A stretch of 64,000 nt of DNA from Bilabrum cf. latius (Eukaryota), in assembly GCA_965178125.1 (NCBI GenBank), contig OZ237745.1, forward strand, positions 62,001 to 126,000. Reading direction: 5' to 3'. Of the stretch, positions 20 through 62,930 are shown piece after piece. How positions within the stretch are numbered: the first letter of the stretch is position 1; every line of letters begins with the position of its first letter. The notes beneath the pieces are model-generated. The model searched no databases and was not told the origin of the DNA. It saw only the letters and a list, made by a program, of their open reading frames with translations. The position numbers and the translations under genes were made by a program.

Positions 20-2362
20 TCAGCTGCTCGGCGCACAGAGGGCACGCTCGTTTCCAATGGGCCACAAGAAGCTCTCCAGACTGGCGGCCGGGCCCAGCCC
101 GTCTAGCACAGCAGCGAGCACGTGCTGCTCCTGCACTGCTCCCCCACTCGCAGCTGCAGCCGCCCGTGCCCCTGCAGCGGCGGCCCGCAGCACCCGCCGA
201 GCCATCGAATCGCTCCTGGCCCGCAGCTCTAGCAGCCACTCCTCTGCCGGTGCACCACCATGCGATGCACCGCACCGCAGCAGCCACTCCCCCACGGGCC
301 CCCGCCGGTACCCATCGGAGCGGGCCCATGCCACCAACTGGGCCCTGCGGCCAAGGCCAGCGACCGACGTGGCTGCGTGCCAAGTCTGTCCCGGGTGCAC
401 TGCAATGCCGTGCTTCGGCAGCACGATGCACTGGTCTACTCCGTCACCAATCGAAGGACCCCCTGCCGCACCTTCGCCTTGACCAAACTATGTGTATCCC
501 GCGGGGTCGGCCTGCGCAACATCTTGGAGGGGTCGAGAGGACGCGTGTTCCCTGGTTCCGGAGAACACCAGAGTACCCGGAGGCGGGCCCACGCCTCTGG
601 CAGACCTCCAGCCCTCGACCTCCCTCTCCTCTCCTTGGCTTTGGCCTTCCCCTGGCCCGCCCTGCCTCTCGAGACATGCGTTCAAAGTGATCTCGCTCTC
701 GTCCATGTGTCGGGAGAGAGAAGAGACGCCGTCCGGCTCGGGCCCGTCCCACAGCCTGGGACTGAGCATGGGTCCGGGGGAGCGGACCCCACCGTCGGAC
801 AATATGTCCGTTGAGTTACCGTCCTCCCAGGCGCGCCGCTGCTTACGGTAGGCCACGGTGAACACATGCCAGTCGTCCACCGCACCGCCATCCCACTCGG
901 GCAACGAAAGCCCGAAGGACAGCCTCCAGCGGCCTCTGACCATAGCTTGCGCCCACTGCCGCAGCCCGATCTCTGCGAGCACGACGCCCTGGCGATTCAT
1001 CGAGTTCGGCCGCGTGAGATTGAGCCCCACTGAAGCGACGTCCAGCTCCGTCTCCTCAGGCGACCCATGTACGTCTGTCTGCAGCAATGCACCCCGGACC
1101 GCTGGTCCGACTGCGCGGAGCGCGAGGCAGACCCCCCGCATGGTTCCGCTCTTTGGCGCCGCGCACTCGTCACGCAGGATGCCATTAAGGTCCCTGGCTG
1201 CCTACGCAGCACCATGCAGTGCATCCAGCTCGAGCGGGTCCAGCAGCTGCGATGCAGGCAGGACAGGTGCCCTCATTCCACTCCCCGGCCGCGAGCTGTC
1301 CGTGGTACCTTCGCCGGCAGGTACTGCATCGCTCGCTTGGATGGATAGTGTTGGTTTGCACGGGACCTGCACTGGACGGCGCGCACTGTCGCGCTCGTGC
1401 TCACCCTGCTGCAGGTGCTCAATGGCGCCGGCTCTGCTCCGTCTCCAGTCGTCGGGACTCATCGCACTGCCAGGGAGGACTGCCTCTGCCTCTTCCGGAA
1501 GAATTGGGGGGAGATCACTGAACTCACTGCTGCTTTTGTGCCGCTCTGAGTTTCTTTCTGATCGTTCTCCTTGTTCGGCTGCTTGCAGCATGGCGAGGGT
1601 CTGCAGTCCCGTTGCAAGCGAGCACGCTGCCGCTCTCGCTGGTGATCGGTTCTAGTCTCTGCAACCGGGGCTCTCTGCCAATCGATGAGGTACACCACTT
1701 GTGTTGGCAGTGGTGCCTGCGGTGGTGCTGCACCCGCACTCCTCGGACAGCTGAAGGCCCACGGCAGAGCGGACTGCAATGGGGAGCTAGCGCGATAACA
1801 AACCAAAGCGCCACTCAAGCTCTCGCTCTGCGATGCTTCTAGCTTGTGCTATTGATGAGTGCGTGCTCTCAACTGATCTAATGCTTGCAAGCGATTGCAC
1901 TTCATCAGCAAGCGTTGCTGTTGACTGCAGTCCTGCAGTTGCATGAGGCTGTTCGCAGGATTGAACTACCTGCAAATGCGCCTCAACCTAGTCTTCACAT
2001 GAAAATACAATCCTGTGGACTCCTACTCGGCATGGAAAAGTGGCCTCCGTTGAGCAATTTGAAGCGACACGTTGCAAGCAAGTGCTCCTTCCTCCGGGCG
2101 CAATCAGCGTTTCTTCCTTTAGCCTATACGGGGTGGGCGGAACGTCAAAATCCCAGGGAGACTGAAGAACCTGCCCTGAAGTTGAATCGGAAAAGCGTTG
2201 TATATGGTCCGAAACAACTACCTCAGCGTCTCCTGTGCTGCAGAAACCAGCCGTCGACATCGCATGAATCGCAGGAAGATCTGGCTCAAGAGGCCGATTG
2301 GACAGACTAGGCTGCATTGCAGCAACAAAGATCAATATCAGCTCTGCTGTGGTTGCTGACAT
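20..2362 (-). CDS. Uncharacterised ~780 aa protein with hydrophobic N-terminus (single exon if TAG=Gln)
   Basis: ORF-track pieces 1988..2383, 1787..1975, 1202..1591, 488..1141 and 20..424 share one frame. They are separated only by TAG (1988, 1787, 1652, 1202, 488). ATG at 2362 (MSATTAELILIFVAAMQ), TGA at 20. No domain recognised. Confidence 0.55.
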
Positions 2363-3303
2363 AGGTAGTTGTGTAATCAGCACAGCGCTCTATTAATCTT
2401 GATGTTCGCGGACTGAAGACCGGAACCCCTTTGCGCCACAGGATTCCGAATCGTGGGTGAATGTGAACAAACCAAAAGGATCAAAGCGCTTCCTCGCTTG
2501 TTTCACTGCCGAGCTAGAGCTCGGCTGTCATCAATGCACGTGTCCATGCTTCAGTCCATCCCTGCACTTGGGTATGCATCACAATGCCAACTCAGGTCAC
2601 TCCAGGTTCGCTGCACCGAATCGCGCCCCCTCCGCACCCGCACATCCCGCCGTCCTGCTCAAGGAACACAAACGGGGCCGGGCCGCCCACTGCCAACTGG
2701 TCTTCTCTTCTGTCCGCCAGGCCACCGCCCTTGCCTTGCTTTCAGCCCCCTCGGGGTGCGCAGGCCTGTCATCCGTCACCGCTGACGAACAAGCAGACAC
2801 CACACACTCCCGCAGGGACTCAAGGCTAGGCACGGGCGCGCCAGCCCCCGGGGGACGGACGGCATGAGAAGAAATGCACAAAAACATCATTCCAGTCGCG
2901 CAGTGCGCGCTAGGGCTGGCTGCTCGCCTGCTAGCTATCAGGAACCCCGTCTTCTCGTTCCACCCCGTGCATGCAAGCACGCATGCGTGCTTGCATGGGA
3001 AAGAAAGAAAAGAGAGGACGAGTTCCCATGATGCCTCCACCGCCGCTCCCACGTCAGCGCGCGGTGGAGGGTAGCAGGCTGCGGCCGCCGCGATCGGCTA
3101 CACGCGTCCAACAAATGCGCGCGTGAAGCTACAGCTGGACATGGCCCGCTCCTGTGCGTCTTTGATCCTCGTCCCCTTAACTACCTCTTAGACTTGCGAG
3201 ACCAAGAGGGAGTGGGGGAGGGGGAGCTCAGCGCACAGGGAGTCGGCGACACAACCGCCGGTTCCGCTGCGGACCTCCGCACGGCCCTCGCGGCACCGCG
3301 CGA

Positions 3304-5034: not shown

Positions 5035-7119
5035 TCATTTCGATATCCTTTCGCAAGGAACTCGCACATTTGCAAGTACTGGCAGATGTGTGCTTTGATG
5101 CGCCGAGAGGTAGCCCCCCTCTCCGCGCCGCTCCCTCTCACAGATGGTCGCCCGCACCCTCACGTGCTCCTGTGCCTGACCAAGCACCCAATCACTCACT
5201 AAAGCAGGGTCTTGAGCCCAAGACAGGTAAACACCAGCTCTTGCAGCGGCATTGCGCATACTGGCATGCGTTCTCTCTGTCACACCCCGCAAAACACACT
5301 CTAGCGCAGACACCCCTTCGGGGCCTGCCCGAACCTGCACCGACAATGCCCTCCAGTCGATCCACCCGTGCCCCGGCAGCTTCATGGGTCTCCCCAGCAG
5401 TGCCACAGGCACCCCTTGCAGCGCTGCCTCCACAGGCCGGGGGGTCCACGGCATCCACCCCTCGGGTGCAAGGAGAAACCTGGACCTGCGGATCTCCTCC
5501 ACGTAGGCCTGGGCCTGGAACCGAGGAGCGGCCAGGATAGGGCCGCCCAGCCCGCCTCTTTGGTGGCTCTTGACGCATTGCCTGCCCTTGAATCGCGCCC
5601 CCTCGTGTCCTCTGCTCTTTGACAATCCCCATCCCCATCCCCATCCCCACCCGCCTGCTGCCTGTTCCTCGGCCCCATCCATGGCCAGAAGCCGCTTCCA
5701 GGCCTCTGCCTGCGACTGCAACTCATGCTAAGCGCCTCCCGACTCCCACGCAATCGAAGGAAGGTCAATCTTGCGCCTGCTTCGCCCATCGCCGTACACG
5801 GTCACCAGAGCCTGCCTCGCTCCCCCTGAGTACTGCCGGTCGTTCATGACGCCACCTGCGAACAGCGCCAGCTGCTTGTACGAAGCAGACGTCAAATCTT
5901 TGCCTCGCACTCCATTGTAGCCAAACGGAGCATTGTCTGGAAACCCCGCGGCCAGGTTCCGGGCCTGTCCCACATAGTACGGCATGATTACATCAAGGGG
6001 GTCCCAGGGCCAGCCCACCTTGCTCTCTCGCTCTCGCCCGGGGTAGCCGTTGTAGTTGGGTAGTGTGTGCTTTGACTCAAGCATGTTTATTTGCTCTTGC
6101 GCTCGCTCTCGATCTGGCTCTGTCCCTGACCCCGATCCCCCGTGGTGGGCCCCATCTACGTCTCTGCGGCCAGTGGCATCCCCGCTGCCGCCATCTTCTC
6201 CTCCTTTTCTCTTTGGGCTTGGAAGCAGCCCGCCGACCTGAACGAAAACCATCCTTCCGAAGTGCTACGAGTGCGAGCGCCGGTCGTCGAGCAGCGCCGC
6301 ACCCGCACCGTGTCCGAATGCCATCACGTGGTCTGACCCCTGGCGCCTATCCCACTGCGGAGTGTTCCGAATGCGCTGCAGCAATGGCCCCAAGACCGCG
6401 TCCCAGACCTACTCTCCACACCTGTACACGCTTGGTGGCACTTGCTTCTAGCCGCTGGTCGTGGCGAGGTCTAGGCAAGAGTGGGCCAGGCAGGTGACTG
6501 GAGTGGGGATTAGAAACATAGTGGCCTCACTTGCATTGAGTGTGATTCGCGACGATCGCACGGCCATTGCAGCCAGCAGAAGCTCAGAAGAGAACATGGA
6601 GCGGTAGCGCGGTACGGAGCCGTCGGGAGTGTCTTCAGAGGAGCGGCAACCCGGTGCCGCACCACCAGTGGAGCCAGAATCAGTGCAAATCCCAGCCCGA
6701 GCCCAGGGATTACAGATGCCAAACTTATCCTGTGACGCGTTTCCAAAGATGTGGACTCCCTTGAACGACCCAGAGGGCCACCCGTACACGTACAGCTTCG
6801 CCGCTGCATCTGCCTCTAGGGACGGCGGAGATCGCATGAAGACCGGAGCGAGCGGACTAGCAAGATGACTGCTGTCATTTTCCTTGCTACACTGTTGCTT
6901 GACTCGACCAGCCTCACAGGCTAGGTCTGGGTGGTTTGCCAGCTACAGCGAGGTTGTCATCGATCGCTCTGCACCGCCTCGAGTGAGCTGCTGATACTGC
7001 AGCGCATAGTTGACCGTAACCATGAAAACTACAGCAATTGCTAAGACAATGGCCAAAAATAATGGCTTCGGCGTCCGATTCTTAGTGTCACAAAAGTCAC
7101 CTTCAGGTGCGGCACACAT
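5035..7119 (-). CDS. Exostosin family (GT47) glycosyltransferase, type II membrane protein
   Basis: One frame with TAG at 6943, 6448, 6409, 6265 and 5728. N-terminal TM (LFLAIVLAIAVVFMVTV). GT47 motifs KLYVY, EATMFLIP, WDRRQGSDHVM, YVEEIRRSRFLLAPEGWMPWTPRPVEAALQGVPV and IDW. Ends TGA. Confidence 0.85.
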
Positions 7120-7369
7120 ATGTCCGAGTCGAACGGTCACCCCGGGCCACTGCTAGTGCCACAGTGGCCGCTGATTATAGATTTTCTCGACTTATCTGGG
7201 CGTGGCCCTCGTCTGGTGCCATGAATCAATGGAATTTTAGATATAGCAGTGAATATCCATCCTTGAAAAGTCGTATCGTTACATTCAATCATCATCGTCA
7301 CCTTCGAGATCTCGCATCGGACCCTCGTCCAACACTTAATCTCTGTGGCACTCATCGAGACTCCCGAGT

Positions 7370-9189: not shown

Positions 9190-11335
9190 TCATTCGTCAT
9201 CTTTCATCTCAGCGCTGCCTTCCCCCGCTGCAGCTGCTGCGGCCGCCTTTGCGCCCTCTGGCGTCACGTCGAGCTCGATGTCCGCGCCCGCAGACCCTAC
9301 CGCCTCCGCCGCCGCCTCCAGCTCCGCCTCCTCGCTCTGCACCTCAGCCCTGGCCCTGCCGTAGCACGCCTGCGCCACCTTCGCGAAGTGCTGCACGTCA
9401 GCGTCCGCATCCCGCGCCAGCTTGGACAGGGCGGGGCCCGCGAGCGCCGCTCCGTCTTCGTCGGAGACCCTGGTCCGGAGGGCGTGCAGCGCCCTGGCGG
9501 CGTTAAACCGCACATTGGCCACCCGATCCTTGGCCAGTTTGACCACGTGCGGCAGCACCGCGTCCCTGCACTGCTCCTCTGGGAGCGCCCTCCCCAGCAG
9601 CGCAAGTGCCCTCAGCCCCGTGAGCCGCAGCAGGTACGACCCCTTGTTCACCTGTGCCTCCAGGCGGGGCACCACGGAGCCGACGGCCCACTCGGGTCCC
9701 AGCACGGTGGCCAGGTGCCTCAGGTTGGCGGCGGCCCTCGCGCGGATGGCCGCCACGTTATCCTCCAGCGCGGCCACGCAAATTCCCGAGAGGTTGTCCT
9801 CGAAGACGCGCCGGCCCAGCTGCCTGGCCAGCAGCGGCATGAAGTCCAGGATTGCCGCTCGCACCCTCCACTTCTTGTCCCCGGCCAGCTCCGTGATGGC
9901 AGGCAGCAGCGACTCGGCCAGGTGCCTCACGTCCACCACCCCCCGCACGGCATCGAGCCGGCTGATCACGTTGAGCCTCACCTGAGACTCGCTGTCCCGC
10001 AGCAGCTGCAGGTACAGGGGCAGCAGATCAGACCGGGTGGTCGCCTCGCCCAGCACAGGGGCCAGCCCGGTCACCGTGGCGCCCAGGGCGGCCCTCACGT
10101 GCTCGCTCGCGTCCTCGGCCAGCTGCTTGGCGCTTGGGAGGACGCCCCGCGCCGCCGCCTCGGCCCCCACCAGCTGTGCCAGCGCGGTCACCTACGAGGC
10201 CGCGGCCGTCCTCACCTCAGCCTCGGCATCCCCGGCCAGCTTGCCGTACGCCTCCAGCAGCTCCCCCCTTGCCGCCTCCGTCCCGAGCGCCCTACTGAGA
10301 GGCGCGAATCCATTGGCCACCGACCAGCGGACCCTCCAGCTGCTGTCCCCGCACAGCTGCACCGCCAGCGGGAGCACCAGCTCCTTGGCCTTGGCCGGCC
10401 CAAGCAGCGCGGCAAGTGACGAGCACGTGTCCACGGCCAGCAGCCGCACGCTGTCTTGCTGGTCCTTGGCCAGCCGGGCCGCGAGCGGGAGCAGCCGGTC
10501 AGACACCGCGTCTGGGCCCGTACCAGCTCCCCCGCTGCCGCTGGACCCCCCGTCCGCCCCCAGCCCGTGCAGCTGCGCCGCCAGAGGCCCCAGGTGCGCC
10601 GCCGCTGCCCTCCTTACCATCGGGGTGTCGTCCCCGCACAGTCTCTCGTACATGCCGAGCAGCTCCTCCCGCCCCGCGGCGGGCAACCTCCGCAGCGCCC
10701 CCGGCAGCAGCGCCGCGGCCGAGATACGAGAGGTGAACCAGTCCCTGGCCACCAGCCGACGCAGCACGGGCAGCACATGCTCCCCAACGGCCCCATCCGG
10801 GATCGCGTCAGAGACCGCCTGGGTGGACGCGACCGCTTGTTCCCTAACGGTGACCTCCTCCACGGTGAGGAGGCGCTCGAGGGGGAGGAGAAGGCCGTGG
10901 GCGTGCTCGGGGCCGCCCACCGAGGGCACCATGCGGCCCAGCTGCTCGGCCATGACCAGCAGGACGTCGTCGTCGTCGTCAGTCATTTCTGCGGGTTAGG
11001 TAGGAAAGGGGTGCGACGTGTGCGGCGGGAGATGTGGGGGTCTGCGCGTGGACACGCTGCCCAAGTGGCAAGCAGCCTGCATGGTGCTCACCAGCCAAGA
11101 AGGGGACCAGCTCCACCCGTGTGCGGTGATGCCCCAATGCTTCTGCTATCTTTGTTATCTGTGACACCGCCTTTGATCGGAGTGTCACATCTTCGTGCCT
11201 AAGCTCGTCTACCAGAAGAGCGATGGGATACAAATCCTCGTCCCCAGCAGCCTGTGCGGCCTAGGCAGCTGGCCCGGGCTGGTCCCCGGGATTTGCTGCT
11301 GACTCAGAGCCAGCAGCACTAGGCTCGTCCGACAT
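9190..11335 (-). CDS. PPP2R1A: Protein phosphatase 2A scaffold subunit A (PR65, HEAT repeats)
   Basis: Motifs LYPIALLVDELRHED, EEVTVRE, WFTSRISA, DDTPMVRRAAA, QDSVRLLAV, SWRVRW, SQVRLNVIS, WRVRAAI and VANVRFNAA. Exon 1 11335-11092, intron 11091-10989 (GTGAG...CTAAC...GCAG), exon 2 10988-9190. In-frame TAG at 11261 and 10192. Ends TGA. Confidence 0.95.
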
Positions 11336-14800: not shown

Positions 14801-14946
14801 AGGGGGCGGGTGCCGAGGGCGAAACTGCCTTCTCGTGGTTCACTGCGGCGGAGGCCAAGGCAGACGCGGAGGGGCGCGCCCTCGCCGAGTTGGAGCAGAG
14901 GCTCATCTCGGTGCACCCTGACGTGCCCGACGATGGGGAGCTTTGA
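11899..14946 (+). CDS. MCM6: DNA replication licensing factor MCM6
   Basis: Motifs RTSEVRPEL, Zn finger CDEC...CRNPSC, FVDWQRVRVQE, IPPGSMPRS, Walker A GDPSTAKSQFL, SGKASSAAGLTA, CCIDEFDKM, SRFDL and ITVRQLESMVRLSEA. Exons 11899-12053, 12240-12566 and 12705-14946. In-frame TAG at 12049, 12349, 12415 and 12520. Ends TGA. Confidence 0.97.
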
Positions 14947-17377: not shown

Positions 17378-17504
17378 GTCTCCAATAGGCAGCAAATGGG
17401 GCAAAATTGAGAATGTGATTGAATTCACTCGTCACATGCTGCGGCGCCACGGCCTTCGAATCGGCCCTTCGTCGACGCTCCTCAAGGTCCATTTTTTGGC
17501 CGAC

Positions 17505-31363: not shown

Positions 31364-31626
31364 AGTCCACACGAAGCTGCAAAGCCGGGATTTGAAACGA
31401 TCCGTTGCGGCCGATATTTCGAGCTCCGAATCATAGCCTGTCCGAACAGCACCGATTGCAGTGCACCTTGCGGCGTCCAGTAATAATCCATTATCAACGT
31501 CAACTACACACCGGCGAAAAATGGGAGTGTCCACCCTGAAAATAAGACGCACTGCGCATCATTGCACGCGGGATCTACAGTAAGAAGCTGGTGGCTACAC
31601 CTGCTACAGCTCCGGGGCCATGCAGT

Positions 31627-38845: not shown

Positions 38846-39014
38846 GCTTGGGCTCGGTTCGCTAGATCTGCTCCGCGTCATACTGCGCTCATCATTCGCG
38901 GTCTCAATCAATCTGTGCTTTCGCGTTGTCGCGGACGATTCCAAAAACAATTCGGAATCAAAATCGTGCGATCCGCGGGTGGATTTCGGCTCCAGGCACC
39001 GTGCCCCTCTGTAT

Positions 39015-48500: not shown

Positions 48501-51373
48501 TTCTCACTGGTACCCGCATCTGGTGCTGCCTTGCTGTCTCTGCTCGTGCGACCCCTGCCCCTGCCCCTGCCCCTGCCTCCGCTTCCGCTTCCCGTGGAAG
48601 ACTGCGACAGGATACCAACAGCGGCCGCCTCCACGGCAGTGACGCCACCAACGGCGCACCCGGCCCTTTCCTTGTGGTTCTGCTTGCTGGCGTCATCGAC
48701 GTCACCAGGGGGCCCGCTCCTGGCATTCTCGCCGCCTTCTTCGTCTGCCCCATCTCCTCCGGCACCCACCCATCCAGCATCAGCTTTGCCCCCAGTCCCT
48801 TCCGCTGCGACATCGAAGAGCCCTTTGAGCGCCGTGGCCTTGCCCATCCCCAGAGCAGACGCCCCCCTACTGCCGCTCTCGCCCGCCGATACCCCGCTGC
48901 CACGAGACAGGGCAGATTCCCTCCCACCGCCGAAGAGGCCCCCACCCCTTGGGACCCCTCCAGTGCCGGCACTGTCCTCGGGGCCAAATGCCTGCAGCCT
49001 CGACCGACGCATCCCCACTCTGACCACCTCGGGGGCGTTGCCGGCATGGAGGGGGATTCCCGCGTCCACCTCCGCGGCTGCCGATCCAGCGCTGGCAGAC
49101 GAGTCCCGAGTGCATTCCCCTGCATCTGTATCGCCATGGCCCCACGAGGGCTGACGCATGCCCGGCCTGCCCATCGCTGCGGATCCTTCCCCTTCCCTTT
49201 CCCCACTGGCCAGTCGGATGGGAACTGGAAGCAACTCGCTGCCGGCTGCACCCCCAGCATCCCCACCTTCCGCTCCGAACAGACCTCGCTGCCCATCGCG
49301 GGGCGTCGCGCCACCCACCATCCCGTCTTCTCCTTCTCCTTCCCCATCGAATGGCATCGAGCTCGACCTTCCAAGCGTGTGAACGCCTCCGCCGGTCCCC
49401 GGCCCACCAATGCCCGCTCCCTGTCCCTGCCCTGCGCCGGCTCCCAGCCGCCCTCCCCGCCCGGCCTCCCCCTGCCTCTCCATGGCCTAGCTCTGCACCC
49501 TAGAGCTCATCTCCACTGCGTCCGTCAGCGAGCCCCAGGCCAGGTCCGTCTGGATGTACACGGTTGCATCCTCCCGCCATGCGCTGAAGTACTAAAGCAC
49601 GTGGCTGCATGAGGCTAGGGCGGCCATGGCCTGCGCCTCTCGAAGCATCGCCGATACGCTGCTGGCCAGGCCTCCCTGCCTGGGCCTCTTCACAGCGTAC
49701 GTCACCCCGTCCACGCGGCTCACGCACCGGAACACGTCCGCAAACTGCCCCGAGCCCACCTTGCTCACCTCCTGGAAGTTCCGCAGGTAGTGCGACACCG
49801 CGGCGCCGTTTCCAAGCCGCAGGGGAGCCCGCCGCCCCCTGCCCCGCCGACCGATGCCTCCCGCCTGCTTGGGGGCGAGAAACGGATTCACGTTCACCTG
49901 CGGGACGTGCTGCACGAACCGGCCCAGCCCGGCCTGTCGCGGCCCACCGGTGGTCAAAGCGGTACCGCCACTCGCCCCCCGCATCACAGTGCTGGGTGGG
50001 TGCACCCCCAAACCCCCAGTTAGCATGCCCCTGCGGAGGGGTGTGGGGGGCGGTCCCCTGCGGCCCCTCGCCCCGGGCCCGCGCTTGCGCACCACGCTAG
50101 GGGCCCGTCTGCCCAACGCGAAGCCGCCCGGCGAATCGGCTCCGGGTGCGTGCCCCCACCCGCCAGCTTCATCTTCGTCCTCATCCTCATCTCCGTTCTC
50201 GCCTGCAGAGCTTGCCGTCAATGAGGAGGAGGAGGACGAGGAGGACGCGAGAGCCATAGGAGGGCTGAACGACTGCCCGGGGCCAGCGCCGCGATCGCTG
50301 CCCAGATCGAAGCGCCCCCGCTGGCGGGACCTCGCATGGCGCAGCGACACGGCAAAGCCGGCCCCTGATTCTGCACCGATTCCAGTCTCGCCCACGGCAC
50401 TGGCGCTGGCCGGAGCACCTGTCGCTCCTGTCAGCGGCAGCTGCAGCCTGGTCCGCACATCACTTAGTGCCCCCGCCCCCGCCCCGCTCCCACGAACGAA
50501 CGCACTGCTCGACGCGCCCAAACGACTGCTCCCGCTAGAGGAACTGCCCCTGGGTGCTCCAGGGGTGCAGTCTACTGCCGTGCTAGTGCGCCCCGCCTCT
50601 CTCACAGCAGCATGCTAGTGCTGCTGCTGTTCCCGTCCGTTGTCGTTTGAATCACCGGGCGACGAAGGACGCAGTCGTTGGGCCCCTCTGTCCTGCGCAC
50701 CAGCACCTGCCCGCGGGGTGGCAGCCCCGCGGTCGGACTGGGGCGACCCCCATGCCTCGCGGGCTAGATCAGAGCAGCTCCTCCCACTCGGATGATGCCC
50801 CGCGTCCCTGACCCCGGCTCCGGCACTGACACCGTCCTCCATGGGAGCCGTGCCTGCGGTTTCCTGGGAGCAATTGCCCGCTGGTGGCAGGCGCGGTCCC
50901 CCCTCACTAGCGAGCAGCTGGCTGGGGTGCTAAGGAGCGGCCGGGAGTGTGGCGGGAGTGGCCGAGATGTCGATGGAGCGCGGCTGGGGCCGCAGGATCG
51001 GCTGGGATGGGGAGGATGAAGGCTATATTGCAGGACTGATGGGTGATTGATGTGGCTCGCGGGGGTCCCGCCTCCTCGGTGCCGCTCGGCTCTGTCTCGA
51101 CCTGGCCGAGTCGTTGGGCAGCTTCGGCAGAGCCCCAGGTGCGCGTGTCTGGGAGCCCAGGTCACCGGCTTCGGAGTCCAGGCTACCAGCAAGATGTGTA
51201 AAATCCTGCGAAGATGCCCCGACCGCGTCGTAGCCCCGATTCAATTCTGGATGAGCAAGACCTTCCGATCGTGCGACCGACGATGCAATCGCTGCATCAG
51301 CCGGCGATACTCGAGCTCGCTCCGACCCATTCTGGCATCCTATCTTTAGCTTTGACTGTCTCGCTTGCCCCAT
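42554..51373 (-). CDS. WEE1: Giant (~2900 aa) Wee1-like protein kinase with large low-complexity insertions
   Basis: N-lobe YLRNFQEVSKVGSGQFADVFRCVSRVDGVTYAVKR...LREAQAMAAL...VL[TAG]YFSAW...YIQTD..GSL; catalytic loop GLAAMHRRGVAHMDIKTSN; KLGDLG, DGDSRYMAPE and ADMYSLG. Ten ORF-track pieces share one frame, joined by ~16 TAGs. Ends TAA at 42554. Start uncertain and introns not excluded. Confidence 0.75.
46921..46988. repeat. Hexamer tandem repeat (CCCTGG/CCCTGA-TCCTGG) encoding QGQGQGQDQGQDQG in the Wee1-like gene
   Basis: About 11 visible 6-bp units. Confidence 0.85.
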
Positions 51374-52135
51374 GGGCTAGGAGAGCGGCTTTTGCGCATT
51401 GTTGATCACTCCTGTCGAGTTGCCGGTGGCGCCAGCAGCCTTCCGTGTCGACCGCGACGGCGCCGTGGTTCGTGACGGCTTTTCCCTGCGATGAACTAGG
51501 CAAGCGCATACACTATCAACTTCAATACAGCTAGCATACCACAGTTTTGGGATCGCGGACTGGATTGCGATTTCGACAGCATATGTCGTCACACAAAATT
51601 TGAACCAAAGTAGGCTGTGAGCGGACTAATCCTTGCTTACCGATGCGATTGCGCTTTGGATCCAAATAAACTGGATAAAGTCTACTGCTGGACAGCGTTG
51701 CTGCCCTTCGAAGACATGTGCTACGCGCGATACAGCTTGTTCCTGGAGCAAGCTGCCCACCTCCACTCCCCGGTTGCAACCACTTGCATCGTTGAACTTT
51801 CAAGAAGAAGATTAAAATTAATCCGATCGTGAAGAAGAAGATTATGATCCACGCAAAGTCGGCTTGAGCCGCCCAGTCATGGGATTGTAGCGGTGATATG
51901 CGGGCCACGCTATGTTTGGCACTTCGAGAGAGACGCTGTCGACGGGCACAAGGAGACGGAGTCGGGGGCAGACACCATTTCTTGATGCGTAAATCTATCG
52001 CCCCTCTGGACAGCCGCGATGCCGCACATGGTGGCTCCCATGGTGAGCAAAAGTGTAATAATGACCCGAAAACAAACAATTATGCCCGAAACCCCAAGAC
52101 AAGTTGCAACCCCCCGGGCCACTCTCGTCTCAGGG

Positions 52136-55100
52136 TCAGTCATCGCCCGCATCCCCCCTAGCCTGGTTGCCCACCTGCACGTCGGTGAGCAGCTGCCTGA
52201 CTCCCTTGCGCATGCCCGGCAGCGAATCCCTCACACCCGGTGGCACCACGCTGAGGGCCTGCCACGAGGCAGACAGCGGGGCCGACAGGTGCTGGAACGC
52301 ATTCCAGTACAGCACCACAACGGCGATGAAGGCCACTGCCAAGTAGCTCCCAATCACAGCCTCGTTGATCTGCATGAACTAGTCAATGCGATCCTCAACC
52401 TCGTTGGCATAGAAGGCCGCCACTCTCCGAAGCGAGTCGTGCAAGTGCGGCTGGGCCAGCTCAGTGCACAGCAATAGCAGCTGGATATACACGGGGTTTG
52501 TGAACGGGTTGAAGTTGGGGGTCTGGCCAGGATATATGTCTGGGTGCCTGCCTCCGATGAACTGCCTCAGACCCTGAGCCAGAGAGTAGATTGCCGTCTT
52601 TGCACCGTTCCGCATGGAGCGCGTGAACGTGCGTGTCCTCGGGTCCACGAACCCGAACACGAGGCCCTACAGCTCGAGGGTGCTTTCTCCCGCCCTGAGG
52701 CAGCCATCCAGATCTGGAGACTCGAAGCACGCCTCGTCGAACAGGAGTCGCTTCGGGTACTCGTGCTCCAAGCTGCCCAAGGTCGTGGTCAAGCCAGTCG
52801 CCTCATCGACCACCTCCCCCCCAATGGTGACTTTCTGCAGAGTCTGCAGCATGCGGCCCTCGATCTCCTCCGCAATGGCCTGGTCCCTGGCTCGAGTCAC
52901 ATTGGTGGGCGCAAGAAAGCCCACGTTCTGCGCAATCCTGACGTAGTCCACCGAGTCGATGGCCATTCGCTGCAGCGTGACCATCCTCTCATTGTAGCGC
53001 ATCACCTGGTTGAGCAGCGTGGTGACCATGATCACCAGGTACAGCACCCAGCCGAAGAATAGCATCAGCGGCACCGTGAAACGGATCGTCGACTGCAGCG
53101 TGAACGTCCAGTTGTCTCTAAACTCCCGTTTCTGCAGGACACGAGCCATCCTATGCCTCCTCTTCTTGCGTCGGCTACCGCTTTCGGTTCTTTTCGCTGG
53201 GCTGGAATTACCGGTATCTATGTTCGCATCGGACTGCCCGAGCCCCCGAGCCAGCTCAAGCCTGGCCAAGTCCGCCTTCGCGTCCATCTGCAGCGGGCGG
53301 GTGGATGCTGGCGAGCCAGGCTGCTTGAACGCACGATCGTCGATGCCCATCGGGCCCGGTACTTTGTCTGCAGCCTTCGGGTTGCCATCTTCACCTGCAT
53401 CAGACCCAGCCAGAGATCCTTCATAGTCGACTTGGCTCGACTCTGTTCCTTGACTAGCTTGCGAGCCCTCCTTCACACTTCCAGTAGTTGCCGCAGCTGG
53501 CACAACGCGAGACCCCCGCCTGCCCCTTAGTGGCTGCGATGCACTCGGGCGGGGAGCAGCACTGCCACTGGCAGCGGTTCCATTACTGTCTTCATCCTCA
53601 GACCCGTAGCTCCTGGCGCTGTTCATGGCCTCTTCTTTGCCCATGCTGAGTGCTTCCTTGCCAAGACTCATGGTATCCTTACTCACGCTGTTGCCGCTGA
53701 TCAGCCGACCACCCCCACCCCTCTGGTTCTCAGCCGAAATCAGTGCCTTCCAGCGCTCCTGCTCCTGGTCCTGAAGCTTGGTGGCCGCTGCAGCAGACCT
53801 GGGTGCCCCGCCCAGCAATCGCTTCATGGTGTTGCCTCGCTGGAACTAGGCCATACGCCTCACTCGGCGCATGTCCTCGCCGCCTTCCTCCTCGCCCGAG
53901 CTGCCCGAATCACTGGATTCTTCTCCCGCTTCGATGGCAGCCCGGACCATTTCTTTGTCATCCATCTCGTCCACCAGGCCCATGTCCCGCTGGTTGTCCT
54001 CGTCCTCGTCCTCCAGCCCCTCCAGCTTAGCCACGGTGTTGGTCAATCGCACGCTGGCCCTGCTCTTGAGGTTCTTGGCGATGCGCTGCGGCATGTGGGC
54101 CAGCAGATCCAGCACGGCAATGGTCCGCTGTCGGAGTCCCCTGAGTGACCGCACAAAGAGGATGCAGCCCACGGTGATTGCCACCACGAAGCATCCAATG
54201 CCAATGCCCCCGATGAGCAAGCGGGCAGTGTCGAAAGAGTCAACCACGTCGAGCTGTCGCTGGGACAGAGTGGCATTCAGGGCCTCGATGTACGTGTCTG
54301 CGTTCACTGTCAGGGTTTGACCTGGCACCCAGTCGAAGATCATTTCGGCTGGATCGTTTACCTTTGCCATGGTCAGCATGATGCCTGTCAGCACGTCTCC
54401 GATCCTGAGGGCGCTCACGTTGGTGGTGCCAATGGCTGATCCCGCAATGTCTGAGTCCGAGTAGGGCCAGATGGACTCTTGCACGAAGTCGATGGCACGG
54501 CGGGCCCCCAGGGCCGGGGTGGCTTTGGTCAGCTCCAGGTGCAGCTGCTAGTGCCTGAGAGCCCGGGCCTTGATGCGCTGAAAGGTGGGCTCGGTGTCCT
54601 GCAGCGTCGGGGGGAATGTGGCTGAATTATGTGCAGCAAGAAATCGATATTCATTGAAGAAGGCCTGAAACTCCATGGCTGTCTCGCTGGTGATGTACAG
54701 GTACCGCGAGCCCCGCTGCAGCTCCTGTCCGATGACGCGCTGCGTGACGATACCAACTACCCCGAGGATGAGGATGATGACCAAAAGTATCGAAAAGGTG
54801 ACCTGCATCGCGTACACCTCCTCGCTGGCTGCCTGTGCCCTGGTCTGCACCACCTTGCTGAGCTGCTGCGCCATCCAGCTCTGCGATGATGCCACGCTGC
54901 CCTGGTCCTCGGCGTTCTAACGGAAAGCAGCCCCTCCATCGCTTATCGCTGACCCGCGCCTCTTGCCTATGGAATTCATCGCACTTCCATGCTTGGCAGA
55001 TGACCCACGGCGGCCCTTCGCAATCAGTGGACCCGGTGCAGCAGTCCCCCTCGCCGAGGACATGCCTTGGCTATCCCGGCTGTCTCGACTGTTTGTGCTG

Positions 55101-58100
55101 CCCCCCGCGACCAATGACTCCGACCCCGCCGCTGAAGATTCTAAACTCTTAGATACCGACCTGCTTCCCATCTTGGGATTCACCTGGCTCATCGATCTGC
55201 CAAAGGAGCCAGTCGTGTTCGAGGAAACCTGCCGGGCCTGGTAGCTCTGGGCCATGCGCCCACCCGATTGACTGAACCGACGCCTAGTGCCCCTCGAGTC
55301 TGCCTGCTTCCCCCCAGTGGTGCCCACCGTCCCATGCTCTGTGCCACCTGCAGAGCTGCCTGATATCGATCGACCGCCATCATCATCAGAAGCGGTGGTG
55401 AGCTGTACCGTCTGCTGCACCTCAACAGACACAGATACCTTCCTGCTGCGGTCTCCGCCAGATCCAAGCTGCAAAACATCGCTCTTCTTCGACTCTTTCA
55501 CAGTCGGCGTGGGTACATCGCCGGCCGCCTTCGCTCCCAATCTCTCACGGGAGCCCCCAGAGCCACCCTCCTGTGTTTCACCGCCTCGCTTGCCGAAGCC
55601 CGCGTCCAGCAAAGCCTGTCTCACCGCTGTCAAGAGCGCCTGCGACTCTTCGTGCCCTGGCCGCCTCCACCGCAGCATGAACTGCCTCTCGCCGAACAGC
55701 GGGGTCAGGTCCTGCACGGACCCGAACACGAGCCTCGTCCCGTCCGAAGCCCCCTCCACAGGTATCATGCCGGTGTCCCGCTGTCGCAGGAGGCTCTTGA
55801 GCTGCATGGAAGCAGGGAACACCGGCATCGTGCGTGTGTCTCCCTCAAGTACAGCTGACAGGTGCATGCCATCAGCAGACCGCTTGCGAGAGAATGAGCT
55901 CGAGGAGCTCATGGCTGGCGGCGGATGCGGCGCCCTGAACGATCCTGCCGCGCTCCTCGCGTTGCCCTTGCCGTCCTTGCTCCTCTTCTTCTTGGACCCG
56001 GCACCTGATAGGTCGTGCCTGCCCTGTTTGATAAAGGACCCGAGAGAGACCAGCCCACCCTTGCCCCCTCCAGCAGCACCGGCTCCACCCATAGCAGCAG
56101 CTGCGTTCTGGTCTCCCCCCGCAATCATGAGAAGCGAGTCACCGCCGGCATGCGCCTCGTCCGACTCAAGGTACTCCCGCAGCTCAACGGCTAGTCTCCG
56201 GTCTAGCTCCCTCATGCGCCACTCCTGGGCTCTGGCCTTCTTGCCGCCCTTGCCCCGCATGCTGATCATGGACCGAGAGGCACGCCCTGGACTGCCGCTC
56301 CTCCTGTGCCTCCTCACCCCAGTGGAGTTCTCCAGGAGAGCCAGCATCGCCCACGGGGCCCAATCCTCCGCGTCGAAGCTCCCACGGTCCGCGCTAGGCA
56401 GCAGGTGCTTGATGCTGTACGACTCCCGCTGCAGGTAGTCTGCATCCACGCCCATGAGTGACAGCGAGGACGCGCTGGCAGAGAGCACCCTGAGTCCGCT
56501 GCGGGGGCCCGCGAAGAAGATCACGTTCTCCTCGCACCTGAGTCGGTCCATGCTCACAGTCAGGCGCGGGGAGGAGGTGACCTCATCGGGCGTGCTCTCC
56601 ATGAGCGAGAGCAGCACGGGGATGGCCGCTCCGTTGCTCTGCTGCACAAAGGTCACCTCGGTGCGATTCAGGTTCGGTGAGAAGCCCAGCCGCACCATGG
56701 AGTGCACTCGCCTCTACCACAAGGTGCGGACGGGCTCCGGCAGCAGCGATAGCACAGGCAGTCCCACGATCTAGCTCGTGCTCGAGTGCCCGAAGAGTCG
56801 ACAGGCCGCGGGAGAGGCTGACAGGATCTCACCCAGGCTGCTGTCCGAAGCGCTGACGGTGAGACTGGCGGCAGAATCGTCCAGCTGGTCCACATCAGGA
56901 GCAGGCGCGCCCAGCACCACGTGTTTGACTGCCTTTTGCCGCTGCCGAGTGTGCCTCTCCTCGATGCGGTCGGCCTTGTTGAACAGCCTGCGGGATAGAG
57001 GGGGGGAAATACAGGAGACTGCAGGAAGCATTATAGGATCGCTAGCAGTTGAGTGTACGAAAAGAAAAGGTGGCATGGCAGAGGGTTGCATGGTTAGGTC
57101 AGAGCAGCAGACTCACTCCATGGCGGGCATTGGGTCGTTCCTCAGCTCGAGAAGGAACTCGGCGTAGCTGCGGGCCACAAGCGCTCCCGAGTTCAGCTGC
57201 ATCATGGTCTTGTAAAGGCCCTCTGTGCGAGCTAAGGACTGCTCAATCTCCACGCTGACTCCCACAAGGTCACCCACCCGCGGATGGCTCTGCGACAGGT
57301 GCTCCCACAGCTTGAGGATGCTGCGCTGTGCCGCGATCTTGCTCTCCTGCGCCTACTTGGCCAGCGACTCGAAGATCACACGGTCCAGCGCAGACAGCTT
57401 GCTCGAGTCAGCCCCCTCCCGCAGCGCCCTGGTGCGCTGGTAGATGAAGAAGGCCACGTCCAGCCCGGGCTGCCTCAGCCTGGCTGCAGATAGGCACTGT
57501 GCCTCGGCGAAGTTGTTCTCTGGGTAGAAGGAGCGGTAGAACTCGGCTGCCAGCACGTGGCTCATGGGGTTCTGCGCGTGGTGCATGACCATGTGGCGGT
57601 AGGCTCGCTCGGCTGCGTACAGCCGCTGCTCTTCGAGCCTCCTCCGTGGGTTGGAGTACGCCTTGTGGAGCAGCCGCTGCCCGTAGAGCGTGTCAGCATC
57701 GATGTCACCCCCGAGGTCCGCAGAGGACGCTAGCCCTTCTCCTCCGGCAATGAGCGCCGCGCCAGTGTCCAGGCCCAGACGAGGAGCAGCCGAAGCTGCT
57801 GCCCTGCGCTGGGCCAGGAGCACCGCCCGCTCGTCCTCGTCCTCCACCTCATCATCAGAGCTCTCGTGCAAGCCCTGCTCCCCTGCAGACCGAGAGGCGT
57901 CTGTGTCGTCACCACGCCCAGCACCGGAGCGGTCCCTTGCGCCCGCTCCCTTGTGTTTCGTACGACTGCCTCCTCCACTGCCAGAAGCGGCACGCTTGTG
58001 GGAGCCGTTCAACCCCCCAGAGGTGGACGACTCTGCCAGGCCCATTAGCTGACCGCCCAGCTGCATGAGGAACGTCCCACCGCCACCTGCACCACCGTCA

Positions 58101-59593
58101 TTGCCCCTGTTGCACCCGCGCTATGCCCTGTCACTCAGCACCGCCACCGCACCCCCCGACTACATCATGCTCTGCGCGAAGTCCTGCATGCGGTGCCTGG
58201 CCCACACGTCGAGGTGCACCACCCTGGAGCACTCCTCCAGCGGCAGCATGGCGATGTAGTGCTCCCGGGTGTATACGGCCAGGAAACCAAGGCAGTAGGA
58301 CAGCCCGCAACCGATGTAGAAGAGCACGCTGAGGTCTCCGTAGTTGGCATACTTGTGCAGAGTCAGCGCCACCGTGGACCAGACGAAGACGGCTGCAAAC
58401 CCGGTCTGCATGCCGTTGACACCTGCGTGCACGTACGGCATCTGCCTGAACATGAGGACGGCCCACGTGAGCCCCGAGAGGTAGAGGATGGCGGTAAGCA
58501 CCCACGAGTCGAGCAGCATGTCCCGGAACACGGTGAAGCAGAGCACCAGCACTACCTTGATCACGAGCACCACAGCGTCCACCCGCCCGTGGCTCTTGGC
58601 GCTCCACGACGCAGAGGCCGGGTTCCGGTCGATGAACACGGCTGTAATGAACACGCTGAGCACCGCGAACACGAGCAGGACGGCGCTGATGAATACACGG
58701 ATGATGATCGGGCCGGCGGCATCGCACTGCCAGCCCGTGCCGATCCACGAGAAGCCATCCAGCGAGCCAGACTCGGCGGGGGCTTCCACGCCCGGGCACC
58801 CGAGCGCCCTGGCCATCACAGTCGTAAACGGCAGGAATAGAGTAGTGGTCGTCAAGGTCGCCACCGATCTGAGGCCCTTGAGCACGATGCCAGATTGGGG
58901 CGCTTTCGTGATGAAGCACCACGCTGCAATCGATGGAAAGCGGTGGAGCAGTGATTCCAAACCAAAATGAATCTGGACCAAAATCAGACTTATTTGCATC
59001 ATGGTTTGCATGGAGCTTGCGAACACCGTATCAGCCAAACAAGGAGCATCTGATGGGCGTAGTACACAACGTGAGGATTCTCACCAACGTAACAGCTCGC
59101 GGCCACGAAAAGGGACGTCCAAAGCGTGGATGCTACTAATAGGACAACATAAAGCGTGAACAGGCTGGACCTTGCGACAAAGTCTCCGCTGAGGACATCC
59201 AGGACTGTTGCGAGGTGCGGAATGCCTGACGAATCTCCACCCTCCCACAACGAGCCATTCACCGGGAAATTGTAAAACTGCACGTACCATGGTCGCAAGA
59301 AGTAAAATTTTGACTATACTTGGTACGAGCAACGCAGAAACTCGACGACTAGGATGACAAGCCTGCCATAATTCTCAATCATTGATCTGCGGCGATACGA
59401 TTGGGTTGCTCTGAGGTACTGAAACAATCTATCTCACTTGCAAAGCATCGATAGTGATTAATACCAAGTATGCCCTCTGTTCTACGGTCATCTCCTTGGA
59501 CATCACATAGGCAAAACCGTAGAGGGACTCCAAGACTAAATCCAGGGGCCCCTTGGAATTCTCTCCCAATGCTGTCGACTAGCTTGAGATCAT
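52136..59593 (-). CDS. TmcB/TmcC-like multi-pass membrane PAS protein, copy 2
   Basis: Same exon structure as copy 1: exons 59593-59438, 59277-59085, 58923-57117 and 56987-52136. About 12 in-frame TAGs; terminal TGA. Confidence 0.8.
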
Positions 59594-59902: not shown

Positions 59903-62900
59903 TCAGCCTCGCGGCGGTCTCGGTCTCGTGCTGAACCCACCGCCCGCAAATCTCTGCGTTGCAGCCTGCGCCTAGCCCCTCTGGGCCTCAAGCAACCGAG
60001 CCCCCGCGTCTGAGCCTCCACCCCCATCCACGCCTGCAACCCCACCGCCACCAACACCAACTCTCCCAGCAGACCCTCCAGCAGGCGAGGTCGCACCGGG
60101 GGCCACCCCGCCACGCATCCCGCCAGCACCCGCCCCAGCGGGGGGCAGCCCCCCACCCACGGCGCCTGCCCCCATCCCATCCCCTCCTGCGCTAGCATGC
60201 ACCCCTGCACCGGCACTGGCCCTGGGCAAGGAGGGTGGGCCCCCACCAGCCGGCCCAGGCGGGTAGTACCCCGCTGCTTGCGCTGCCGCCGCCTCTGCTG
60301 CCGCCCTCTGTCCCTGCCTGGCCTCCTTCTTCCTGTATGCGTAATACTTGTGCTTGGCCTCCTGCAGTTCCCGCTGCAGCCGCTCCGATTCGTACCTGTA
60401 CTCGCCCACCTGCGCGTGCAGCATGTTGAGCTCGGACGCCATGCTCTTGACCTGCCTGCTCTTATCCCTCAGCGTCTGCTGGTAGGCGCTCAGTCGCTCG
60501 GCCACCTCGGGCCCGGGCTGCCTCTGCAGGATCTCCCTCAGCTCAACGTATAGACGATCCTTCTCCTGCAGCAGCATCTCGCACTCTACCACCTGCTCCG
60601 TCTTGCGGATCAGCCGCCGCTGGAGCGTCTGCACCTTCTGCAGGAGCTCGAACGTGGCCGGGTCGCTGCCCTCCAGCCGCCTCCACCGGTGCACATTGAG
60701 CGGCTGCTCCATCTCCTGCGAGAGCGCGGTCACTTTGGTCCTCTCCTCCATCAGCTGCTTCTGCAGCCGCACCACCTCCTGCTGCAGGGCCGCGTGCTTG
60801 CCCGTGGCCTGGTTGGCGAGAGCCATCTCCCGCCGCAGGTCCGCGACCTTCCGCTTGAGCACCGCCACGTCCTCGCTCACCTGCGCGAACTGCGTCTCGC
60901 CCTTCTTCAGGATGCTCTCCTGGATCTCTAGCTTCTGCTGCTGCAGTGCCAGCTCGTCGTTCCTGCGGATCAGCTGCGCCCCGAGCACGTCCCGCTCGGT
61001 CACCAGGTCACCTGCCTTGCGTTTCTGCTCCGCCTGTGCCTCGTCCTGCTTGCGGATGGCCGCGTTGAGCTCCTCTACAACGGTGGACAGCTGCTTGCAG
61101 TGCGCGTCCGACTTTGCCAGCGCCTCCCTCAGGCCGTCTGCCTCCCTTGCCTTGTCGTCCAGCCGCTTGAGAGCCGCCTTGTTGTCAAAGTGCACGGCAA
61201 CGAGGGACCTGTCCTTGGCCGCCACGTCCTCTTTGAGCTGCTCCACCTGCCTGCTCATGATCTTAAACTTGCGGCGGAGCTCGGCAATCTCGTCGTGGGA
61301 CTGCACCAGCTGCTTGGAGAGGACGTTCCGGTCGGCGCGCACAGTGTCGTACATCTGCCTCTGCTGCTTGAGCTTGCCCTGGCTCTCCGTCTCTCTCCTC
61401 TCGGCGTCCTGCACCTGCTGCTGCCGCATCTTCTCCAGTCCCTCCACCTCTGCCTTCTCCTTGTCCTTCTGCTCGATCAGTTGCTCCAGCCTCGCATTCC
61501 GCTTCTCCAACTTCATGAGGGTTCTCCTCAGCTTCTCGTTGAGCATCATCATGTCCTGTACCCTCGAGTCCATCTCCTTGCTCACCTGCAGCTGCTCCTT
61601 CACCGCTGCCTCGGCGCGCTTCTTGCCGGCCACCTCGGACTTCACCTTCTCCTCCTCAAACTTCTTGGCCATCTCCAGCTTGCCGATGGCACCGCCCGCC
61701 TCGGTCAGCTTGCGGGCCGCCACCTCCACGTCCATTTCCATGGCCCGCTTGTCGACCAGCACCTTGCGCAGGTCCTCCTTCTGCTGGTTCACCCGCTGCT
61801 GCAGGCGGGCCTTCTCCTGCTCCAGCCCGTGCAGCTTTGCCAGCACCCTCTTCCTCTCCTGGTCCGTCTTTGAGGTTATCCTCATGGCCTCCTTCTGCGC
61901 CTGCTGCAGGGTGGCCACTTCGTCCTGCAGGGCACCGCACCTGACCTGCAGGTCGTCTTTCTGGTCCCTCAGCTTCCGCTCCTTTTCGTGCATCTCCTTC
62001 TGGTCCCCGATGATCCTCCTGATCGTGTCGTGCGTCTTCTTGATCTCCGCCTGGTTCTTGGAGTTGATGCCCTCGGCCTCCCGCGACTGCCTCCGGGCGT
62101 CCTCGAGCTCCTTCTCCCTCTGGATCAGCTGGGTCTTCACCTTCTCCAGCTCGTCCCGCAGCCGCTCCGTCCGCTTCGACTCCCTCTGCTCTTCGTCCTC
62201 CTTGGACCTCACCTGCGCCTGAAGCTCGGCCACCCGGTCCTTGAGCTCCCTGCCCTTGGACTTGCGCTGCTCAAGGCGCTGCAGCAGCTCGTCCGCGCGC
62301 TTACGCTCGTACTCTGCCTGCGCGGAAGCCTCTTCGAACTGCCGCGTGGCCTGGTCGCGCGCCGCAATCACGTCCTCCAGCGTCGTGTCTTCCCCTAGGA
62401 GGCCAGTGTACCGGTCGACGAGCATCTTGAGGCTGTCGATTTCTGTCTGGAGCTTCTGCGTCACCGCAGAGGCGGCCTCTTCCTTCTGGTTGGCGCCTTC
62501 AATCATCGCATGAGCCTTTTCTACCTGCTTGCGCAGCTCCTAGATGGTTGCATCGTCGTCTTCGCTAAGCTTCATCGCGGAAGCTACCTGTGCAGCGTTT
62601 CGCTTCATCTCTGAGCTCATTTCTTTCACTTTCTTCACCAAGCGTCTCTCGTTTTCATGTGACTGCGCCAACCATAGTATTGAAGCACAACACGACCAGC
62701 ATGTTCAAGGCATGCGTTTGACGATGTGCAACCATCGACTTTCTTGTACACAACAATCTCACCTTTTTCAGTGCTTCGTGCAATTTCACGTACTCTGAAC
62801 GGAAGCTTTCAAGTGTTTTATCACCAACCATACTTTCCAAGACCTCCTAGAAGTCCTTTTCTAGAGCCTCGAAGGCCTCGGCATCCTCATCAAAATCCCC

Positions 62901-62930
62901 GTCCATGGCATGAGCGTCTTTGCTCTCCAT
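59903..62930 (-). CDS. CFAP58: Cilia- and flagella-associated protein 58 (CCDC147)
   Basis: AFEALEKDF[TAG]EVL...GDKTLESFRSEY..LH...SHENEKRL; ERDVLGAQLIRRNDELAL; PLNVHRWRRLEGSDP; QPGPEVAE; C-terminal RFAGGGFS. Exon 1 62930-62763, intron 62762-62663, exon 2 62662-59903. TAG at 62847, 62540 and 59972; TGA at 59903. Confidence 0.92.

Follow-up and report, generated by a model that had tools for sequence, protein, structure and literature searches.

A probable table 15-type nuclear code, with UAG as glutamine and UAA and UGA as stops, in a 64-kb window of Bilabrum cf. latius DNA

In nuclear genomes, reassignment of the stop codons UAA and UAG almost always affects both, according to the accessible portions of two papers on the subject (PMC5304391, PMC11687900). 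For UAG uncoupled from UAA, the accessible text of the second paper names a single fornicate, a single rhizarian, one genus of green algae, and a few lineages of ciliates, and it reports UAG alone as a glutamine (Gln) codon in Iotanema spirale, Protocruzia tuzeti, and two phyllopharyngean ciliate lineages (PMC11687900). The same text gives UAR (UAA and UAG) as Gln in ulvophytes, Hexamita, Streblomastix, and Amoeboaphelidium, and, among other UAG reassignments, UAG as serine in Scotinosphaera, as leucine in the rhizarian exLh and some ciliates, and as glutamate in the ciliate PL0344, where UAA is lysine (PMC11687900). The accounts in PMC8271138 and PMC5304391 are consistent with this picture. 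Here we analyze a stretch of 64,000 nucleotides from Bilabrum cf. latius (contig OZ237745.1, positions 62,001 to 126,000 of the forward strand; hereafter “the window”), for which a sequence-only reading had proposed that TAG encodes Gln while TAA and TGA still terminate. The window is eukaryotic nuclear DNA with a GC content of 63% across its whole length. Judged from its gene sequences, it is likely that the source uses a nuclear code of the table 15 type, in which UAG serves as a low-frequency Gln codon, UAA and UGA remain stops, and UGA additionally encodes selenocysteine (Sec) in a thioredoxin reductase (TrxR).

TAG within frames, TAA and TGA at their ends

The sequence-only reading had listed 14 genes interrupted only by TAG, at about 85 sites, and our count comes close to this figure, with 83 in-frame TAG codons in 18 frame segments bounded by TAA or TGA when both copies of a duplicated gene are included. 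Some of these codons lie in likely 5' leaders, for example, the first codon of the frame at 20-2392, which is probably non-coding, and positions 58 and 141 of a Wee1-like kinase frame. Over the 11 non-duplicate frames (12,625 codons), we found 63 TAG but no TAA and no TGA in frame, whereas the two off-frames of the same 11 frames average 71 TAG, 33 TAA, and 219.5 TGA. TAG is thus not depleted in frame, whereas TAA and TGA are excluded. At off-frame density, about 252 TAA and TGA codons would be expected, and the Poisson probability of finding none is ~1e-110. This agrees with the earlier claim that no gene is interrupted by TAA and that the sole internal TGA is a Sec codon, found at 19844-19846 in TrxR. 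Reading TAG as sense increases the number of residues in frames of at least 500 amino acids (aa) from 6,914 to 22,724 and the longest frame from 856 to 3,082 residues; reading TAA as sense leaves the former number nearly unchanged, at 6,940.

Since the frames were delimited by TAA and TGA, the absence of these codons in frame is partly a matter of construction. As a control, we considered frames bounded by TGA only. In the true coding frames among them (9190-11184, 5035-7284, 20-2527, 12571-14946, 42539-51799, and 38637-41600), every in-frame TAA belongs to a leader, an intron, or a trailer and is no more than 62 codons away from an end, and TAA occurs deeper inside only where the frame was judged to be antisense or off-frame.

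The retention of TAA as a stop is illustrated by the Sec-type TrxR frame (17969..19852, (+) strand), which closes with Ser-Gly-Cys-TGA-GGT-TAA, that is, with Gly-Cys-Sec-Gly followed by the TAA at 19850-19852. Its translation aligns through the final residue of TrxR1 from rat and human, both of which close with the same Gly-Cys-Sec-Gly. A C terminus flush with that of mammalian TrxR1 indicates that TAA ends a gene whose C terminus is functionally fixed and that the preceding TGA is Sec. No selenocysteine insertion sequence (SECIS) model of Rfam matched 3' of the gene (19844-20300, (+) strand), even at E values up to 10, and this lineage may have a diverged form of the element. Just after the TAA, a GTGAGT...AACAG stretch could be an intron in the 3' untranslated region (UTR).

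Among the 17 frame ends examined, 14 are TGA and 3 are TAA, and none needs a TAG end, close to the earlier tally of 15 TGA, 3 TAA, and no TAG. One of the TGA codons (38843-38845) stands in a GGTGAGC context and may be a splice donor rather than a gene end. The view that UAA and UGA still terminate is therefore upheld by the TrxR end at TAA, by TAA-as-sense lengthening no gene body, and by TGA acting as a terminator or as Sec.

Within the frames, TAG accounts for ~10% of Gln-type codons, roughly one per 200 codons, in a background where CAA is rare relative to CAG (86 versus 489 in the 11 non-duplicate frames). Its use follows codon bias: genes with a high third-position GC content (GC3 of 0.84-0.90; the MCM6 main exon, TrxR, PP2A-A, and CFAP58) carry 0-2 TAG, and low-bias genes (GC3 of 0.62-0.76) carry 4-18 each, as expected of a disfavored synonymous Gln codon. 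A codon-usage model trained on the high-GC3 genes passes 31 of the 83 TAG sites on both sides. Under the same model, 181/388 in-frame and 2/387 off-frame control positions pass, so that it must be considered insensitive for low-bias genes.

The residue encoded by TAG

To identify the residue, we sought positions at which TAG in the window faces another codon or residue in a close counterpart. One such counterpart lies within the window itself, where an inverted duplication of 7.2 kb (21267-28486, (+) strand, and 52136-59281, (-) strand; 94-97% identity) carries two copies of a TmcB-like gene on arms separated by about 23.6 kb. Copy a (21468..28486, (+) strand) has two exons, copy b (52136..59080, (-) strand) is its inverted paralogue, and each contains 10 in-frame TAG and ends with TGA. 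Each arm comprises one whole gene and ends exactly at its TGA stop; a weaker match of 86% lies upstream (20965-21130 versus 59432-59597). In the N-terminal part, the copies differ at 30 synonymous versus 10 non-synonymous codons, an excess indicating that both are under purifying selection. Seven TAG codons are kept in both copies, and CAG stands opposite a one-sided TAG in three of four cases.

The second counterpart, L001, is a contig of a JGI metagenome (Ga0136560_1018932; 2,011 nucleotides [nt], 56% GC) that retains an intron and is hence genomic. It is 77% identical to the window's TmcB-like protein over the N-terminal 306 residues and 59% elsewhere. Its 569 codons include two in-frame TAG, so that a divergent relative shares the use of TAG as a sense codon. 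L001 has no counterpart to the roughly 560 residues in the middle of the protein (about aa 350-910), its N- and C-terminal homology blocks being directly joined. At the four window TAG sites that it covers, L001 has CAG three times: opposite copy a aa 111 (23780..23782, (+) strand), aa 130 (23837..23839, (+) strand), and aa 970 (26357..26359, (+) strand), the last of which is also CAG in copy b.

Further comparisons come from database proteins of relatives. P0001, a Logan-derived protein 98% identical to the Wee1-like kinase, has Gln at both TAG sites covered, aa 736 (49592..49594, (-) strand) and aa 771 (49487..49489, (-) strand). P0010, an ENA protein 96% identical to TmcB, has Gln at its single covered site, copy a aa 1108 (26771..26773, (+) strand), where copy b also has TAG. 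The more distant P0007 and P0009 (64-67% identical) have Gln at the one site covered, copy b aa 1482 (52667..52669, (-) strand), which is CAG in copy a. Likewise, copy b aa 576 (57353..57355, (-) strand) is CAG in copy a and falls within the span 556-653, which corresponds to TPR_TmcB by a Pfam match obtained on copy a. Pooling the near comparisons (paralogue, L001, and relatives' proteins), CAG or Gln is found in 10 of 12; counted by distinct window sites, one or more partners have Gln at 8 of 9.

The sequence context points in the same direction. TAG (written q) occurs within poly-Gln runs such as QQQqqQ, qHEqQQ, DDqQQ, and RqQQSq, and two adjacent TAG codons of the Wee1-like frame (45257..45262, (-) strand) lie inside the run QKQQQ-qq-QMKMQQ. 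The Gln fraction within three residues is 0.094 around TAG and 0.086 around Gln itself, versus a background of 0.046; for the nine other types of residue examined, it ranges over 0.039-0.064. Among immediate neighbors of TAG, histidine is the most enriched, with 9 observed versus 2.6 expected (QQQHqH, ERqHE, LRHqQ, and GAqHE). Taken together, Gln is almost certainly the best reading of TAG as far as sequence comparison can tell, in line with the original proposal. Public standard-code gene calls for copy b are broken up by its TAG codons, at which P0005, P0008, P0011, P0014, and P0015 start or stop.

TAG behaves as a sense codon in many genes, both conserved and lineage-specific, and several TAG codons fall within conserved protein regions. 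The main exon of the PP2A scaffold subunit A (PP2A-A; 9190..10995, (-) strand; Pfam match, PDB E value of 3.5e-131, ending with TGA) has one TAG at 10192-10194, in a gap-free block of the PDB alignment. The Wee1-like kinase frame (42554..51799, (-) strand; 3,081 aa, 18 in-frame TAG, ending with TAA; PDB Wee1 E value of 2e-22, Pfam Pkinase) has 47 and 54 TGA in its off-frames versus none in frame, and its TAG at aa 736 lies within the conserved motif SHVL-q-YFSAW, aligned without gaps to human Wee1. The N-terminal exon of MCM6 (12058..12566, (+) strand; yeast MCM6 E value of 9e-5) has three TAG (12349-12351, 12415-12417, and 12520-12522) in gap-free columns. The position of TAG inside gap-free alignments to PDB PP2A-A, human Wee1, yeast MCM6, and the genomic DNA of L001 indicates that these codons are not in hidden introns.

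Alternative readings of TAG

A number of observations weigh against a simple Gln codon or at least do not favor it. Distant homologues have Gln at none of the five TAG sites covered: the PP2A-A column is lysine in the plant and human chains, Wee1 aa 736 is arginine in human Wee1 and in the relative P0003 and histidine in the relative P0004, and the three MCM6 columns are isoleucine, methionine, and glutamate in yeast MCM6. We read this as neutral because the columns are variable. Among the near comparisons, the fourth site covered by L001 (copy a aa 1108) is TCC, the remaining one-sided paralogue site faces GAA in a poorly aligned stretch, and the two TAG of L001 itself face ATC and AGG in the window. 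The relatives' database proteins are assumed to be standard-code calls, confirmed at the DNA level for L001 only. The Gln excess directly beside TAG is not significant (9 observed versus 6 expected, P = 0.15). In the CFAP58 and WW/p25-alpha frames, the last TAG lies 23 and 36 codons, respectively, before the final TGA, where it could be a terminator. Finally, a tRNA scan of the 64-kb window returned no tRNA genes, and the gene for the release factor eRF1 is not in the window either.

The alternative that fares best against the data, although we regard it as unlikely, is an ambiguous code, in which UAG would be Gln internally and would terminate some genes near the 3' end of the mRNA. Context-dependent use of UAR or UGA as sense and stop occurs in Condylostoma, karyorelict ciliates, and Blastocrithidia. 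The two late TAG codons just mentioned would fit such a code. Around the CFAP58 site, codon usage scores negatively on either side, and at only 23 codons before TGA, this second CFAP58 TAG is indistinguishable from a terminator. Against this stand the 17 of 17 examined frame ends that are TGA or TAA, and the lengths of the tails fit random placement. In the 10 genes compared, a number that gives the comparison low power, the tail after the last TAG averages 186.5 codons versus a mean TAG spacing of 200, and two of the ten tails are shorter than 40 codons, where chance predicts about 2.

A code of the table 6 type, in which UAA and UAG are both Gln and in-frame TAA escapes notice merely through its rarity at 63% GC, would match the near-universal joint reassignment of the two codons described in the accessible parts of PMC5304391 and PMC11687900. 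With CAA so much rarer than CAG in frame, TAA would indeed be rare. If TAA:TAG scaled as CAA:CAG, 11.1 in-frame TAA would still be expected, versus none seen (P = 1.5e-5). Moreover, with TAA read as sense, no true coding frame grows by more than 62 codons, and this growth is confined to the frame ends, while TrxR would gain 22 residues after its obligatory C-terminal Gly-Cys-Sec-Gly; two further frames also end with TAA. We therefore consider this code very improbable.

We assign the same very low probability to UAG encoding a residue other than Gln, such as glutamate, lysine, serine, or leucine, as in other UAG reassignments. The lysine, arginine, histidine, isoleucine, methionine, and glutamate found at TAG columns of distant homologues, where Gln never appears, would agree with it, as would the single TCC and the single GAA among the near comparisons. 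What decides against it is the CAG or Gln in the other 10 of those 12 comparisons, together with the TAG codons in poly-Gln runs and a neighborhood composition around TAG that matches that of Gln.

Less probable still is a standard code corrected at the RNA level, either by U-to-C editing to CAG or by unconventional splicing of the TAG sites. An exchange between TAG and CAG is what editing sites would show as well. To our knowledge, however, nuclear U-to-C editing aimed at roughly one codon in 200 is without precedent. Splicing, in turn, would remove conserved residues, since the TAG sites lie in gap-free protein alignments. For both, the occurrence of TAG at different sites in L001 and in the window is what a freely used synonymous codon would produce.

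The least credible explanation is an artefact of pseudogenes, sequencing errors, or chance open frames, for although long spurious frames do arise in GC-rich DNA and the window holds many antisense frames of 200-750 aa, TAG is the sole interrupter (0 TAA and TGA over 12,625 codons versus about 252 expected), essential genes (MCM6 and PP2A-A) are affected, 7 TAG are conserved between paralogues with a 30:10 synonymous excess, and sequences from other sources match across the TAG sites.

For a code with UAG as Gln and UAA and UGA as stops, the mechanism would comprise two components. UAG would be decoded by a cognate tRNA-Gln(CUA), which a single change in the anticodon would derive from tRNA-Gln(CUG), and the N-terminal domain of eRF1 would have lost UAG recognition while keeping that of UAA and UGA. 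The latter component is suggested by analogy with Iotanema spirale, for whose eRF1 a T32G change in the GTS motif is proposed in the accessible text of PMC5304391.

Gene layout, relatives, and comparison with known codes

Matches in Pfam and PDB confirmed the identities of PP2A-A, MCM6, CFAP58, the Wee1-like kinase, the Sec-type TrxR, a GT47 exostosin, a TraB protein, an LRR and EF-hand protein, and the TmcB-like protein, a membrane protein present in two copies; the window further contains a GST, an RRM protein, and a WW/p25-alpha protein. An Rfam scan of the window gave no matches at gathering score. The three introns resolved by homology are canonical GT-AG introns of 103, 134, and 138 nt with GTGAG-type donors. 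The PP2A-A intron (10989..11091, (-) strand; 103 nt, donor GTGAGC) leaves a junction that restores VPFLAEMTDDDD, collinear with PDB PP2A-A. The MCM6 intron (12567..12704, (+) strand; 138 nt, donor GTGAGG), which contains an in-frame TAA, leads into the MCM6 main exon (12705..14946, (+) strand), which has no TAG and a GC3 of 0.90 and ends with TGA. The intron of TmcB copy a (23432-23565, (+) strand) lies between the two exons of that gene and joins them.

Several other frames carry in-frame TAG and end with TGA: the GT47 exostosin-like frame (5035..7191, (-) strand; 6 TAG), the TraB-family frame (15059..17431, (-) strand; 4 TAG), the LRR and EF-hand frame (28751..31558, (-) strand; 6 TAG, one within an LRR and two in QARqQQSqT), the frame with a weak OGFOD2-like match (20..2392, (-) strand; 6 TAG), and the CFAP58 frame (59903..62704, (-) strand; 2 TAG, at 62540-62542 and 59972-59974). 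The WW and p25-alpha (TPPP) frame (34313..38845, (+) strand; 5 TAG) encodes 1,510 aa with a SAM-like region, a WW domain, and the p25-alpha domain at the C terminus. Its terminal TGA lies in the donor-like GGTGAGC, and it overlaps the next frame (38637..41441, (+) strand; no Pfam family, 5 TAG, ending with TAA), so that the two may be one gene. In the Wee1-like kinase, the N-lobe (about aa 670-790) and the C-lobe (about aa 1750-2125) are parted by ~950 aa of low complexity rich in Gly, Ser, Ala, and Gln, a split layout that is also seen in the more distant Wee1-like relatives P0003 and P0004.

Genes are closely packed. The convergent stops of MCM6 and TraB are separated by 112 nt (14947-15058), and those of TmcB copy a and the LRR and EF-hand gene by 264 nt, spacings that leave room only for very short or overlapping 3' UTRs. 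AATAAA was present at none of 15 gene ends, and the chlorophyte-type poly(A) signal TGTAA lay within 900 nt of only 2 of the 15. On this evidence, a Chlamydomonas-like green alga was rejected as the source.

As to the reach of the code, the Wee1-like relative P0003 (44% identical) has an unbroken standard-code frame of 1,607 aa, which hints that the code change is confined to a narrower clade. A TmcB search among proteins of near length gave no match, and a first metagenome scan with the window protein gave no confirmed locus. For placement, we built an MCM6 tree of 78 rows from a search of cluster representatives, with names looked up for 30 of 150 matches. The query falls in a clade of 15 rows with a Shimodaira-Hasegawa-like approximate likelihood ratio test (SH-aLRT) support of 98, in which labels are available for Albugo laibachii and Aureococcus anophagefferens alone. 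Its sister (support of 92) is the unlabelled pair P0017 and P0022, and the labelled fungi, cryptophyte, and prasinophyte are placed elsewhere. The tree represents a single gene, with no labelled ciliate, alveolate, or rhizarian among its rows, and we take an affiliation of the source with stramenopiles, or with the stramenopile-alveolate-rhizarian (SAR) group, as a lead short of placement. The suggestion that the code arose independently of fornicates and ciliates and is undescribed can thus be followed in part: separation from both groups is plausible, given the MCM6 tree, the GC content of 63%, and the introns of 103-138 nt, whereas “undescribed” is unproven. Full-text searches, which excluded subscription journals and supplements, found no report of UAG-only Gln in a stramenopile or in a GC-rich non-ciliate flagellate. 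Leads to aphelids and ulvophytes were rejected, as both have UAR as Gln, and a Phaeocystis lead was rejected, as it concerns a plastid code with UGA as tryptophan in the accessible text of PMC12480563.

It is tempting to speculate that we are looking at an independent, unreported reassignment of UAG to Gln that leaves UAA and UGA as stops, in a flagellated lineage that is rich in GC, bears introns, is affiliated with stramenopiles, and has at least two divergent members (the window and L001), a proposal that we advance tentatively, being nearly evenly divided on it. If true, this would be the first UAG-only Gln code in the stramenopile supergroup, in the setting of a flagellate that looks culturable and has a compact, GC-rich genome, introns of the ordinary kind, and selenoproteins. 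It would also have arisen where base composition should favor, not disfavor, TAG as a stop, so that it would test whether reassignment needs codon loss under AT pressure. Nuclear genomes in which UAG is uncoupled from UAA are rare, and another independent case would furthermore test how eRF1 drops UAG yet keeps UAA. In practical terms, public standard-code calls for this organism are chopped at every TAG, so that this proteome and those of the metagenome relatives are mis-annotated until table 15 is applied. The code would thus be of interest to specialists and of consequence for annotation, without being categorically new.

Among known systems, the fornicate Iotanema spirale has the same table, with UAG alone reassigned to Gln and UAA kept as a stop, according to the accessible portions of PMC5304391 and PMC11687900. 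Unlike Iotanema, the window has an MCM6 that groups with those of an oomycete and a pelagophyte, and it combines 63% GC with a Sec-type TrxR and the flagellar CFAP58. The macronuclear genomes of ciliates are rich in AT and have tiny introns. Protocruzia tuzeti and the two phyllopharyngean lineages share the codon table of the window as far as the accessible text describes them (PMC11687900), whereas the window has 63% GC and GT-AG introns of 103-138 nt; with no labelled ciliate in the tree, the separation from these ciliates is inferred. The table 6 codes of ulvophytes, Amoeboaphelidium, oxymonads, Hexamita, and many ciliates likewise read UAG as Gln and use TGA as the main terminator, as given in the accessible parts of PMC8271138 and PMC11687900, but in the window TAA is a stop, with none in frame versus 11.1 expected and with TrxR ending at TAA. 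In Scotinosphaera, exLh, and PL0344, UAG is uncoupled from UAA as in the window, where the residue would be Gln instead of serine, leucine, or glutamate. The UAG-to-Gln code of the window is therefore probably one of a known kind, in a lineage that is new to it.

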